Part shown: positions 3,602-5,587 of the stretch, one piece after another
Position numbering within the stretch: position 1 is the stretch's first letter
Layout of the letters: the number at the start of each line of letters is the position of its first letter
Made by a program: the position numbers and the translations under genes
Virus record (IMG/VR): IMGVR_UViG_2600254977_000009
Length of the DNA stretch: 8,984 nt
Direction: 5' to 3' (one strand)
From: a virus
Lineage: Duplodnaviria > Heunggongvirae > Uroviricota > Caudoviricetes
Notes under the pieces: model-generated
Database searches by the model: none
Seen by the model: only the letters and a program-made list of their open reading frames with translations
Told to the model about the DNA's origin: nothing

Positions 3602-3817
3602 TTACTCTCCCCGTGCCGCCTTACGACGGTCCTCTCTGATTTTGAAATACAGGTTAGTCAGATATGTCAGCAGCCCAAACAGCAGACTCCCCAGCACGCC
3701 TATTGCCGCCCACTGAGACGGGGAAACCCTGTCCAGCAACTGCAGGAACCAGTAGCCCGTTCCCACCGCTGACGTGGTGTATGACACACCTGTTGTGATT
3801 TTTTCCATCTGGTCCAT
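3602..3817 (-). CDS. S: Class II holin, phage-21 S-type pinholin (71 aa) with a dual-start motif
   Basis: From ATG at 3817: [71 protein letters not shown]. It has two TM segments and a charged C-tail, and is near-identical to S21/EssD-type pinholins as I remember them. Met1 and Met4 (MDQM) fit the holin/antiholin dual-start pattern. GGGAGACGGGG lies upstream of the ATG. The longer ORF-track start at 3922 has no such support. Confidence 0.85.
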
Positions 3818-3850
3818 ACCCCGTCTCCCGTTATCCGGAAGCTGAAAACA

Positions 3851-3881
3851 ATAAAAAAGCCACCAGTTAACTACTGATGGC
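3851..3881 (-). terminator. Candidate intrinsic terminator about 35 nt upstream of the holin start
   Basis: Minus strand reads GCCATCAG-tagttaa-CTGGTGGC followed by TTTTTTATTGTTTTC (plus strand ataaaaaagccaccagttaactactgatggc). The stem is 8 bp with one mismatch. Confidence 0.5.
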
Positions 3882-4085
3882 TCTGATAACTCATGCAAGC
3901 GTCTCAGACGACCCACTGACACTACCGGTGAGTTTAACGATACCTTCCATTTGACTGGCTCACTTTTTATGATGATGCCGGTGCATTTATCTCCAGCGCC
4001 AGACTTTCTATCTCAACGCCATACGTTACATTTTTGGTAATATCCATCAGCGTCAGTGCATTTAGTCCCACTGCCAGACTGTCTT

Positions 4086-4313
4086 TTATGGCCTGGAATG
4101 CCGGGCCAGTACGATGACGTAGTACCAATCCGGCTCAGTTGCACCACTGACCACCACATCACCTTCTGCTGCAATCGCCTGCATCAGGGTATAAGGGGTT
4201 ATGGCCACCGGACTACCAAACGGCTGCCAGCCCTCCTTCAGTTTTTGTGTCAGTCGTTTCGCAAGGTCTGACGGCGATACCGCCCTGACCACGTCATAGT
4301 GTTTAAATGCCAT
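4086..4313 (-). CDS. Small conserved prophage protein (75 aa), possibly DUF1737-like
   Basis: ORF MAFKHYDVVRAVSPSDLAKRLTQKLKEGWQPFGSPVAITPYTLMQAIAAEGDVVVSGATEPDWYYVIVLARHSRP. The ATG at 4313 is preceded by a strong SD (GGGAGGATTC then ATG). The family assignment is from memory of small proteins found upstream of holins in Stx-type phages and is uncertain. Confidence 0.65.
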   Translation of the reverse strand: MAFKHYDVVRAVSPSDLAKRLTQKLKEGWQPFGSPVAITPYTLMQAIAAEGDVVVSGATEPDWYYVIVLARHSRP

Positions 4314-4506
4314 GAATCCTCCCGGCCGGGATAATATTGTGAGTAAAATAAGGAGCGGGCTGAAGTCCGGAAGTTACAGGACAATGGCAGAAGAGAGACG
4401 ACAGCCCGCAATTCGAAAAAGACCGCGCAGTTGCGCAGAGTGATTACTATGGGGTATTATTCGCCAGCTGAAATATTACTTCACGTTTTATTGTTTATTC
4501 CTTGCC

Positions 4507-4535
4507 GCCCGCGTCTCCCAGCGCGGGCTTTTTTT
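4507..4535 (+). terminator. Strong plus-strand intrinsic terminator (antisense to the late operon)
   Basis: GCCCGCG-tctcccag-CGCGGGC followed by TTTTTTT. A perfect 7-bp GC-rich stem with an 8-nt loop and a 7-T run on the plus strand. Confidence 0.6.
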
Positions 4536-4544
4536 GCCCACAAG

Positions 4545-4776
4545 AAAACCCCTCCGGAGAGGGGCTAAAGCCGCGTATCTGTATCATCATGCACATGGTG
4601 CCGGGTGCCTCCCGGTGAGTTCAGCCCGGTGCCACTAAACCCGCGTCATTCTCGTTTTGATAATCAGAGATTATACCGTCACCAGTCGCCCCTCCGCTCA
4701 GGGGGATTCACCATGCGAAATTTTTTTAACAAATGCCCAGTCTGACAGGCAACTGTCAACTTACTGAATTGTGAGC
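4545..4776 (-). repeat. Copy A of a ~220-230 bp block-conserved element; on the minus strand it ends in an intrinsic terminator
   Basis: Shares identical or near-identical blocks with copy B: cccctccggagaggggct, catggtgccgggtgcctcccggtga, gcccctccgc(t/a)cagggggattcaccatgc, ttttaacaaa, gtcaac, ctgaattgtgag. The blocks are separated by divergent spacers of unequal length. Minus-strand 3' end: CCCCTC-tccg-GAGGGG then TTTTCTTG (plus 4541..4564). Confidence 0.7.
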
Positions 4777-4810
4777 AACATAGCATTTAACGGGGAACCT
4801 GTTTTCTGCA

Positions 4811-4839
4811 GTAAAAAGGCCCACCGGAGCGGATGGGCC
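4811..4839 (-). terminator. Candidate intrinsic terminator between the two repeat copies
   Basis: Minus strand GGCCCA-tccgctccgg-TGGGCC followed by TTTTTACTG (plus strand gtaaaaaggcccaccggagcggatgggcc). Confidence 0.45.
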
Positions 4840-5030
4840 TGGAAGGATAGCGGTCATGTGATGCCGGTTTCCCGGTAACTCAGCACCGGTATCTGAGTCA
4901 ACGTTTTCTCTACTGGGTCATTTCCGATACGCCCTGCCTGCTGACAGGCTTTCATCACATCTGAAAATATAGCACCCTGACTGATACTGTAGTACCTAAG
5001 GTTCCAGAAACTGTGATGTATCCGGCACAG

Positions 5031-5245
5031 AAAAGCCCCTCCGGAGAGGGGCTGGAGAGTGGCGCTATGTGCCATTGCATGGTGCCGGGTGCCTCCCGGT
5101 GAATTCAGTACCAGCACCTGAATCCGCGATTATCCCATATACCTACTCGCTGATTGCCCCTCCGCACAGGGGGATTCACCATGCCAGTTTCTTTTAACAA
5201 ACTCCCCGCAAACCAGACAACAGTCAACCGCCTGAATTGTGAGAC
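5031..5245 (-). repeat. Copy B of the block-conserved element; on the minus strand it ends in an intrinsic terminator
   Basis: Same conserved blocks as copy A in the same order. Minus-strand 3' end: GCCCCTC-tccg-GAGGGGC then TTTTCTGTG (plus 5027..5052). Short ORFs that can be drawn through the two copies differ in frame and length, which argues against coding. Confidence 0.7.
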
Positions 5246-5288
5246 ATTTAAAAAAAAGCCCGCAAAAGCGAGCCAGGGAAAATAAGTG

Positions 5289-5365
5289 TGGCGCGTTGTA
5301 CTGGATTCGAACCAGTGACCGATTGCTTAGAAGGCAATTGCTCTGTCCGGCTGAGCTAACAACGC
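5289..5365 (-). tRNA. argO: tRNA-Arg (anticodon UCU), canonical cloverleaf
   Basis: Reverse complement GCGTTGT-TA-GCTC-AGCCGGACA-GAGC-A-ATTGC-CTTCTAA-GCAAT-CGGTC-ACTGG-TTCGAAT-CCAGT-ACAACGC-G-CCA. All four stems pair perfectly and the anticodon loop is CU-UCU-AA. Gene name is by analogy to the ileZ-argN-argO cluster of lambdoid/Stx prophages. Confidence 0.9.
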
Positions 5366-5378
5366 AGGATACAGATAA

Positions 5379-5455
5379 TGGACCGCCTTCGGGGACCCGA
5401 ACTCCGCGCAACCAGCTTCGAAGGCTGGCGCTCTTTCCTGATGAGCTAATGGCGG
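5379..5455 (-). tRNA. argN: tRNA-Arg (anticodon read as UCG), with non-canonical features
   Basis: Reverse complement CCGCCAT-TA-GCTC-ATCAGGAAA-GAGC-G-CCAGC-CTTCGAA-GCTGG-TTGCG-CGGAG-TTCGGGT-CCCCG-AAGGCGG-T-CCA. D and anticodon stems are perfect. The acceptor stem has one A:A mismatch, the T-stem one A:C mismatch, and the T-loop is TTCGGGT rather than TTCRANY. Position between the two good tRNAs supports a real or slightly degenerate tRNA. Confidence 0.6.
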
Positions 5456-5462
5456 TATGTGA

Positions 5463-5538
5463 TGGTGGCCCTTGCTGGATTTGAACCAGCGACCTGGCGA
5501 TTATGAGTCGCTCGCTCTCACCACTGAGCTAAAGGGCC
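5463..5538 (-). tRNA. ileZ: tRNA-Ile2 (anticodon CAU, lysidine type); a tRNA-Met is not excluded from sequence alone
   Basis: Reverse complement GGCCCTT-TA-GCTC-AGTGGTGA-GAGC-G-AGCGA-CTCATAA-TCGCC-AGGTC-GCTGG-TTCAAAT-CCAGC-AAGGGCC-A-CCA. Very similar to E. coli ileX/ileY (tRNA-Ile2) as I recall it. It is the first gene of the prophage ileZ-argN-argO arrangement. Confidence 0.85.
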
Positions 5539-5587
5539 GGGAGCAGAATAATAATGGTGCGTAATTAATTCTGCAATCTCATCCGTT

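Follow-up and report, generated by a model that had tools for sequence, protein, structure and literature searches.

What does a lambdoid prophage carry in its late operon at the place where Shiga toxin (Stx) phages keep their toxin genes, if no toxin gene is there? The question is raised by the IMG/VR virus record IMGVR_UViG_2600254977_000009 (Caudoviricetes), whose full 8,984-nt stretch is called the window here. The interval studied (window 4314-5288, 975 bp) lies between three transfer RNA (tRNA) genes and a small open reading frame (ORF; 75 amino acids (aa), 4086-4313, minus) that precedes the holin gene (3602-3817, minus), and this placement, given by a reading made from the sequence alone, proved right. 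Since the tRNAs are on the minus strand, the late genes run from high to low coordinates, and "downstream" of the tRNAs means lower coordinates. The sequence-only reading had found no credible protein gene in the interval, only two direct repeats and several terminators. Our analysis indicates that the interval is very probably a cluster of small RNA (sRNA) genes in the moron slot, flanked by Q, a methylase and the tRNAs upstream and by the lysis cassette downstream. The cluster would comprise three independent genes of the STnc100 superfamily on the late strand (units A, B and C), each ending in its own intrinsic terminator, and a fourth RNA gene, PapR, on the opposite strand. RNA elements cover the interval nearly completely, and the unassigned stretches measure 4, ~38 and ~21 nt.

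The two direct-repeat copies are real. They consist of co-linear blocks of 88, 31 and 28 nt with 80-97% identity at a spacing of 468-487, and the three blocks together form one unit of ~200 nt present in two copies. Both copies matched the STnc100 family (RF02076) over model positions 1-206, the full length, and far above the gathering score of 47 bits that Rfam sets for membership. Unit A (5023-5246, minus; Rfam match 5213-5023) scored 136.3 bits (E 1e-30), and unit C (4536-4785, minus; Rfam match 4745-4536) scored 161 bits (E 4.6e-37). We also built a covariance model, R1, from six strong units of the window, Sakai Sp5, phi296 and PhiR5_2, excluding unit B and PasD; under this model, units A and C reached 197.6 and 198 bits, respectively. 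RNAalifold on the same six units from four phages recovered the Rfam architecture independently. The family fold comprises a closing helix (P1), a hairpin (P2), a hypervariable segment with a 3-bp closing helix, two further hairpins (P4 and P5) and, after a linker, the terminator. In unit A, a conserved upstream block spans 5246-5214 and the TGn+TAAAAG box 5199-5191; the 5' end is predicted at ~5184, and the terminator lies at 5053-5034. The corresponding parts of unit C are located at 4785-4746, 4731-4723 (TGn+TAAAAA), ~4716 and 4566-4547.

A third, divergent copy, overlooked by the sequence-only reading, lies between these two. Unit B (4807-4984, minus) has a TGcTATATT extended -10-like box at 4974-4966, a predicted 5' end at ~4960 and a terminator at 4840-4817. 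In a permissive scan, 4984-4811 matched RF02076 over its full length with 30.1 bits (E 3.2e-4), and the match stopped exactly at this terminator. As the score is under the 47-bit cut-off, unit B was filed as a divergent relative of the same STnc100/PasD superfamily and not as an Rfam member. The R1 model was then searched against sequences that it had not seen. PasD2 and PasD1 of the enteropathogenic Escherichia coli (EPEC) strain E2348/69 scored 42 and 41 bits (E ~2e-9), and the unit-B copies of PhiR5_2, strain 51008369SK1 and the window scored 37, 37 and 32.5 bits (E 3e-8 to 5e-7). Every match covered the full length, and the scores of PasD (41-42 bits) and unit B (32-37 bits) are similar.

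Covariation supports the shared fold. In a 15-sequence alignment, 96.6% of the cells were paired and 19 of the 38 pairs showed double-sided changes, against 5.3 +/- 1.8 in shuffled alignments (0 of 500 reached 19) and 1-5 with slid partners, the alignment having been fitted to the model and hence being biased to structure, a bias that the slid controls carry as well. In P1 of unit B, four of the eight pairs are changed on both sides relative to STnc100 (AUGUGAUG/CAUCACAU vs GCAUGGUG/CACCAUGC), and paired changes in P2 separate its two known alleles; compensatory changes preserve all helices of the fold in unit B. Folded alone, unit B adopted the family shape (z = -2.8). The structural features of the superfamily were all found, namely a four-way junction made of the closing helix and three hairpins, a linker, an intrinsic terminator and covariation.

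The distribution of unit B was surveyed in two collections. Among 5,426 complete E. coli genomes, some part of the interval occurred in 2,869 and at least 80% of it in 353; unit B was present in 673, in two alleles. In IMG/VR, 80 loci were found through the variable segment of unit B. All full-length copies with assessable flanks (72/72) sit between two same-strand STnc100-type units, which are 74-100% identical to units A and C of the window, and the downstream unit was absent only from 3-4 truncated copies. The triplet is also present in PhiR5_2 and in 51008369SK1.

The fourth gene is read from the plus strand. The sequence-only reading had recorded a strong plus-strand terminator (4507-4528) and missed the gene to which it belongs, which is that of the sRNA PapR. 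Seven oligonucleotides listed for PapR (as "RipA") in S3 Table of Khandige et al. 2015 map to window 4300-4579, five as perfect matches and two with one 1-nt indel each. The cloning primers pSK1_F (4356-4375) and pSK1_R (4514-4535) are both exact, the knockout arms fall at 4327-4397 and 4510-4579, the primer-extension primers at 4300-4321 and 4487-4508, and the Northern probe at 4393-4427 (one 1-nt indel). As these oligonucleotides delimit the RNA, PapR corresponds to window plus strand 4356-4535 (180 nt). The identity turns on this match, and a failure of the published oligonucleotides to map is excluded. A search of the supplements of the same study for UTI89 coordinates returned nothing, so that the identification came from the oligonucleotide table; its second probe (RipB/C271) did not match the window. 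The gene is preceded by a TAAAAT box (4344-4349) ending 7 nt before the PapR start, and it contains an internal hairpin (4423-4438) and a CCUUGCC seed (4500-4506) directly before the terminator. One apparent minus-strand terminator (4438-4423) is this internal hairpin as seen from the other strand.

The interval is 100% identical to that of the prophage in UTI89, S88, IHE3034, NU14, ATCC 11775 and many other strains, and PapR of UTI89 is accordingly the same gene with no sequence difference. In UTI89, PapR is reported to need Hfq for its stability, to be activated transcriptionally by LRP and to be induced within host cells; by base pairing, it represses papI, the phase regulator of P fimbriae (Khandige et al. 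2015, PMC4546395). The window plus strand (4354-4535) also showed 93% identity over 182 nt, seed included, to E2348C_1409.E2348C_1408.IGR, a candidate sRNA from the ligation and sequencing of interacting RNAs (RIL-seq) in EPEC. In the EPEC study, the Hfq-dependent chimeras of this RNA included the cfa 5' untranslated region (767 chimeras) and that of dppA (197), and its targets share GGCA[A/G]GG, which pairs with the CCUUGCC motif. Table S6 of that paper lists EcOnc08/21/42 as homologues in enterohaemorrhagic E. coli (EHEC). PapR (uropathogenic E. coli), E2348C_1409.E2348C_1408.IGR (EPEC) and EcOnc08/21/42 (EHEC) are one RNA under three names. The available parts of the Khandige paper, the EPEC paper, a 2021 review and a 2026 preprint contain no link between PapR and the EPEC or EHEC names or the paired sRNAs of moron slots.

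PapR and unit C stand tail to tail, with 3' ends abutting at 4535/4536 and terminators back to back. Tree et al. 2014 described convergent sRNA pairs (EcOnc27/AsxR and EcOnc06/AgvB) in the moron slot of at least eight Sakai prophages. The window shares their layout: a late-strand sRNA (unit C, ending at 4536) and an opposite-strand sRNA (PapR, ending at 4535) with abutting 3' ends, between the moron position and a conserved DUF1737/nanS-p ORF (here the remnant at 4086-4313), downstream of Q (7210-8031). Unlike in those pairs, the partner here is PapR, a 180-nt mRNA-targeting RNA, and not an anti-sRNA of 51-60 nt with a conserved 3' region of ~42 nt. In the available text of the PapR paper, nothing presents PapR as converging with an STnc100 unit at a prophage moron slot. 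The plus-strand RNA was also considered as AsxR or AgvB, and this identity was rejected, as neither AsxR (RF02703) nor AgvB (RF02702) gave a match at E<=1 in 3800-5700. The AsxR model scored 88 bits in Sp5, PapR is common to the Sp5 locus over its first 83 nt only, and its 3' module has no homology with AsxR. An OmrA-B match on PapR (25 bits, E 0.05) was below the Rfam threshold and was discarded as homology. As a separate observation, the homology arm at 4510-4579 used for the papR deletion extends over the PapR terminator and also over unit C's terminator and 3' end. This brings the resistance cassette up against unit C, whose expression it could influence, and phenotypes of the papR deletion may be confounded in this way.

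Relatives of the locus were compared using our record numbering (L001, UTI89; L002, Sakai Sp5; L007, E2348/69 PP6; L009, 51008369SK1; a window coordinate equals the L001 coordinate minus 687). The statement in the sequence-only reading that this position holds stxAB in Stx phages was borne out by Sakai Sp5, which carries stx2AB in the same slot. Window 5300-5251 aligns with L002 5006-5054 and window 5246-5170 with L002 6390-6466; these flanking alignments show that the 1,335-bp stx2AB cassette of Sp5 (L002 5055-6389) replaces a 4-nt gap at 5247-5250. The window carries no stxAB between the tRNAs and the STnc100/nanS-p region, and its stx site is empty. In Sp5, the tRNAs are followed by stx2A/B (L002 5108-6348), a single STnc100 copy (6423-6628; 207.7 bits, 75 nt past stx2B), the convergent AsxR (6630-6682) and nanS-p. 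The terminator block of the tRNA cluster, found by the terminator scan (5251-5281, minus; hairpin 5274-5257 plus T-run), is the same in Sp5, where it aligns with L002 5006-5054 directly before the stx2 cassette.

Other relatives differ in the number and type of units. The phage phi296 has one unit, PapR and an intact NanS gene, and its unit joins a C-type internal segment to an A-type 3' linker. In PP6, one A-type unit is joined directly to PapR, followed by a 617-aa DUF6645 esterase. This A-type unit is split by ISEc13 (L007 5049-5111 and 6621-6797; transposase 5112-6485), and beside it lies an intact PapR homologue, the RNA seen in the RIL-seq data. In 51008369SK1, iraM (L009 2896-3231), which encodes an anti-adaptor for RpoS degradation, replaces PapR in the convergent position, so that this position is itself an exchangeable cargo slot. 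A locus carrying PasB (L005) was set aside as irrelevant, PasB being located among tail genes.

The absence of a credible protein gene in the interval has held up. The longest ORFs are 87, 93 and 81 aa with GTG or TTG starts, and none of the ORFs within 4314-5288 has a Pfam match above threshold. That the interval nevertheless holds decayed or small protein genes is suggested by PHROG families, phrog_23557 (55 aa, E 7e-30) lying in sense over unit B (4857-5015, minus) and phrog_24488 (E 4e-11) on the plus strand, antisense over units A and C (4605-4742 and the 5069-5194 region), by a coding sequence placed over unit B in the PhiR5_2 annotation, and by a pseudo "hypothetical protein" fragment of 42 codons at 5069-5194, the only RefSeq feature in the interval. 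We consider this highly improbable. The start codon of the PhiR5_2 annotation is ATA in the window and has no usable ribosome-binding site, the 27 allele differences of unit B are spread 8/10/9 over the codon positions with a ratio of nonsynonymous to synonymous polymorphism (pN/pS) of 0.60, the amino-acid changes coincide with compensatory RNA pairs, and the ORFs coincide exactly with covarying RNA helices. The two PHROG families most likely reflect RNA genes misannotated as protein-coding, and the RefSeq pseudo-gene also looks spurious. The proposal that the repeats are functionless scars or substrates at the borders of lost cargo such as stx is very unlikely. In its favor, relatives differ in unit number, with a single unit in Sp5, phi296 and PP6 and a triplet in UTI89, PhiR5_2 and L009; mosaic units occur, PP6 resembling an A/C recombinant joined at the shared terminator; and the slot is a hotspot that has received stx2AB, ISEc13, iraM or an esterase deletion in different relatives. 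However, the comparison with relatives that the sequence-only reading had proposed as a check does not show cargo enclosed by two repeat copies: in Sp5, the cargo sits between the tRNA terminator and the upstream block, a putative promoter region, of a single STnc100 copy, which largely refutes cargo-boundary scars. The scores against a curated RNA family, the strong compensatory covariation, the individual terminators and the conservation of the triplet as a module in all testable viral contigs, despite the variation of the flanking units, also speak against remnants. What stands of the suggestion is that the units recombine, since relatives hold one or three of them in mosaic form, and this recombination acts on functional modules. 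The other suggestion, by which the repeats themselves form a non-coding RNA cargo, is borne out by the Rfam matches, the covariation and the Sp5 layout.

The wealth of terminators noticed earlier was confirmed, with 11 terminator-like sites in the interval versus 2.0 +/- 1.3 in shuffles (a five-fold enrichment), and the minus-strand sites at 5274-5257, 5053-5034, 4840-4817 and 4566-4547 close the tRNA cluster and the three RNA units. Each unit combines a four-way-junction core with an internal segment that is hypervariable and a 3' linker that also varies; in the proposed mechanism, the last two are the likely target-recognition parts. The three RNAs would be made in the lysogen from their own promoters and would act in trans on different targets through the variable segments; homologues of A and C are transcribed in lysogens. 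The unit terminators and the tRNA terminator would keep lysogen-state transcription out of the lysis genes, and after induction Q-modified polymerase would read through all of them. Such read-through by Q-modified polymerase on induction is established lambda biology. An alternative, which we regard as unlikely, is that the STnc100-type units are mainly cis-acting, either as a stack of terminators and insulators shielding the lysis genes or by processing or stabilizing the late mRNA and upstream cargo such as stx. It would account for the terminator enrichment, for the place between the Q-dependent promoter and the lysis genes, which is invariant across the relatives examined, and for a junction core conserved even in its loops, atypical of sRNAs made of a seed and a terminator. 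A simple terminator, however, needs neither a 150-nt covarying junction nor hypervariable segments, and the homologues accumulate as discrete RNAs on Northern blots (STnc100_4 and PasD), crosslink to Hfq (EcOnc27) or form many RIL-seq chimeras with a defined seed (PasD). A cis role and a trans role can also coexist. Several points weigh against trans-acting sRNA genes as the full account: the literature lacks validated targets for any STnc100, unit B is known in two alleles only and its own covariation evidence is thin, and, compared with a plain base-pairing sRNA, the core shows unusual conservation and structure, so that another mode of action is conceivable. In addition, a generic sigma-70 scan of the interval returned zero minus-strand promoters, and the promoters and 5' ends of the three units are predicted by means of a conserved box and the approximate mapped 5' end of the distant homologue PasD1.

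That box is the TTGTTAAAA element (TGn+TAAAAA/G), which is invariant in STnc100 and takes the form TGcTATATT in unit B; both lie ~7 nt before P1. The reported 5' end of PasD1, estimated from RNA-seq coverage and Northern size, is the first P1 nucleotide, 8 nt past its TAAAAA box, and this position gives the 5' ends predicted for units A, B and C. A conserved block of ~30 nt (CTCACAATTCAG..GTTGAC[A/T]) precedes unit A (5214-5246), unit C (4746-4785) and the Sp5 unit (L002 6390-6422), and is not found before unit B. Its TTGACA/TTGACT is 25 nt from the A/T-rich box and is therefore not a standard -35 element; the block may serve as a regulator-binding site or as another promoter. Sigma-54 was considered in view of a Salmonella RpoN chromatin immunoprecipitation (ChIP) signal and rejected, as no GG-N10-GC match was seen by eye. 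Two polymorphisms after stx2B (at +90, T<->C; at +103, loss of a T; PMC12711010) have been reported to abolish features predictive of haemolytic uraemic syndrome. In Sakai Sp5 they fall at L002 6436-6451, within 1 nt of the TGT of the TTTGTTAAAAAAA box and of the TTT run before P1, positions that a numbering offset leaves uncertain. Being close to the predicted -10 region and the pre-P1 run, they may alter the promoter or start site of the Sp5 STnc100.

Loci of this kind are already known: STnc100 is in Rfam, PapR has been characterized in UTI89, and convergent moron-slot pairs were described by Tree et al. 2014. RF02076 overlaps EcOnc27 of Sakai Sp5/sRNA103 of EDL933, and EcOnc27, the Sp5 STnc100 homologue, binds Hfq by CRAC crosslinking (Tree et al. 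2014). All 11 STnc100 copies of EDL933 are transcribed according to RNA-seq, and one (STnc100_4) is Northern-positive. PasD is also Northern-positive and forms many RIL-seq chimeras with a defined seed. In Salmonella, sigma factors bind at STnc100 copies in ChIP-exo data. Overexpression of sRNA103 affects fimZ and espA, and an 11-nt in-silico match to stxB has been reported. The Sp5 STnc100 resembles units A and C in fold, late-strand orientation and place ahead of the nanS-p and holin genes; the window differs from Sp5 in having three tandem units with their own internal segments and 3' linkers, and no upstream protein cargo.

PasD1 and PasD2 (Pearl Mizrahi et al. 2021) share with the window units the P1/P2/P4/P5 core and the A/T-rich box before P1. 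The structural homology of PasD and STnc100 has been reported independently, and in the available part of that source the PasD copies are distal and never tandem (Zhu, Shabalina & Storz 2026 preprint). Assigning unit B to PasD itself was rejected, as blastn shows no similarity between them, unit B has another variable segment, linker and terminator, and it lacks the UGUGAG seed. Tandem sibling sRNAs such as OmrA/OmrB and PrrF1/PrrF2, also cited in that preprint, are likewise adjacent paralogues with a conserved and a divergent part. The analogy is functional only: those belong to unrelated families of the core genome, whereas the window has three members and a fourth, convergent gene, all carried as phage cargo.

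The additions made here are modest and do not overturn the current understanding of prophage-encoded sRNAs. A "gene-free" 1 kb, blank in RefSeq apart from the pseudo-gene, becomes four RNA genes, and two PHROG protein families that appear to be built on RNA genes are flagged as probably spurious. The exact empty stx site is defined in a non-Stx relative, and the PapR names are unified and the gene placed in the convergent-sRNA layout of the moron slot. With unit B, a divergent paralogue of the STnc100 type is added, always found at the centre of a triplet. We tentatively suggest, as a possibility we would not favor at present, that unit B is an expressed and hitherto undescribed third subfamily of STnc100/PasD, that the fold serves as a modular chassis, its conserved junction core bearing swappable target segments that recombination in phages reshuffles, and that the fixed triplet, each copy with segments of its own, and PapR in prophages of extraintestinal pathogenic E. 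coli form a four-gene island rewiring host expression (fimbriae, cfa, dppA and others).

The surroundings of the interval were annotated with RefSeq, using the identical UTI89 sequence. On the minus strand, RusA, Q, a 65-aa ORF and a DNA methyltransferase (5588-6637) precede the tRNA-Ile/Arg/Arg cluster and the interval, which is followed by the partial DUF1737 ORF, a class II holin, YdfR, lysozyme and an Rz-type lysis protein. This order from Q to the lysis genes is what places the interval in the moron slot of a lambdoid late operon. The holin (Phage_holin_2_1, E 3.7e-32 in Pfam; WP_000372595.1 in RefSeq) is the first lysis gene and marks the downstream end of the slot. The tRNA genes, called by ARAGORN, Rfam and RefSeq, are tRNA-Ile2(CAT) (5463-5538), tRNA-Arg(TCG) (5379-5455) and tRNA-Arg(TCT) (5289-5365), all on the minus strand. 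The CAT tRNA is Met according to ARAGORN and Ile according to RefSeq; it is of the ileZ type, read as Ile after lysidine modification, and the cluster (5289-5538) agrees with the ileZ-argN-argO set that the sequence-only reading had named for Stx phages.

The 75-aa ORF before the holin has a good GGAGG ribosome-binding site and was identified from Pfam, PHROG and blastn as the remnant of a nanS-p/DUF6645/SASA-type esterase. It matched DUF1737 (E 2e-16) and positions 1-82 of the 634-position phrog_143, and RefSeq labels it "partial". By blastn, its region corresponds to L007 7003-7239 and 8731-9281, so that relative to PP6, 1,491 bp (L007 7240-8730) have been lost, with a 16-nt junction overlap at window 4094-4109. 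As judged from these alignments, the "small ORF" of the sequence-only reading is an internal-deletion remnant of a nanS-p-type esterase gene of ~617 aa. The identical deletion is present in strain 51008369SK1. Farther upstream, a strong GC-rich hairpin with a T-run (CCCGCCGCCTGGCGGG TTTTTT), without an Rfam match, is located at 7112-7127 (minus), ~85-100 nt past the Q stop codon (7210). By analogy with lambda 6S RNA or StxS, a short leader RNA from PR' would terminate at this candidate tR'.

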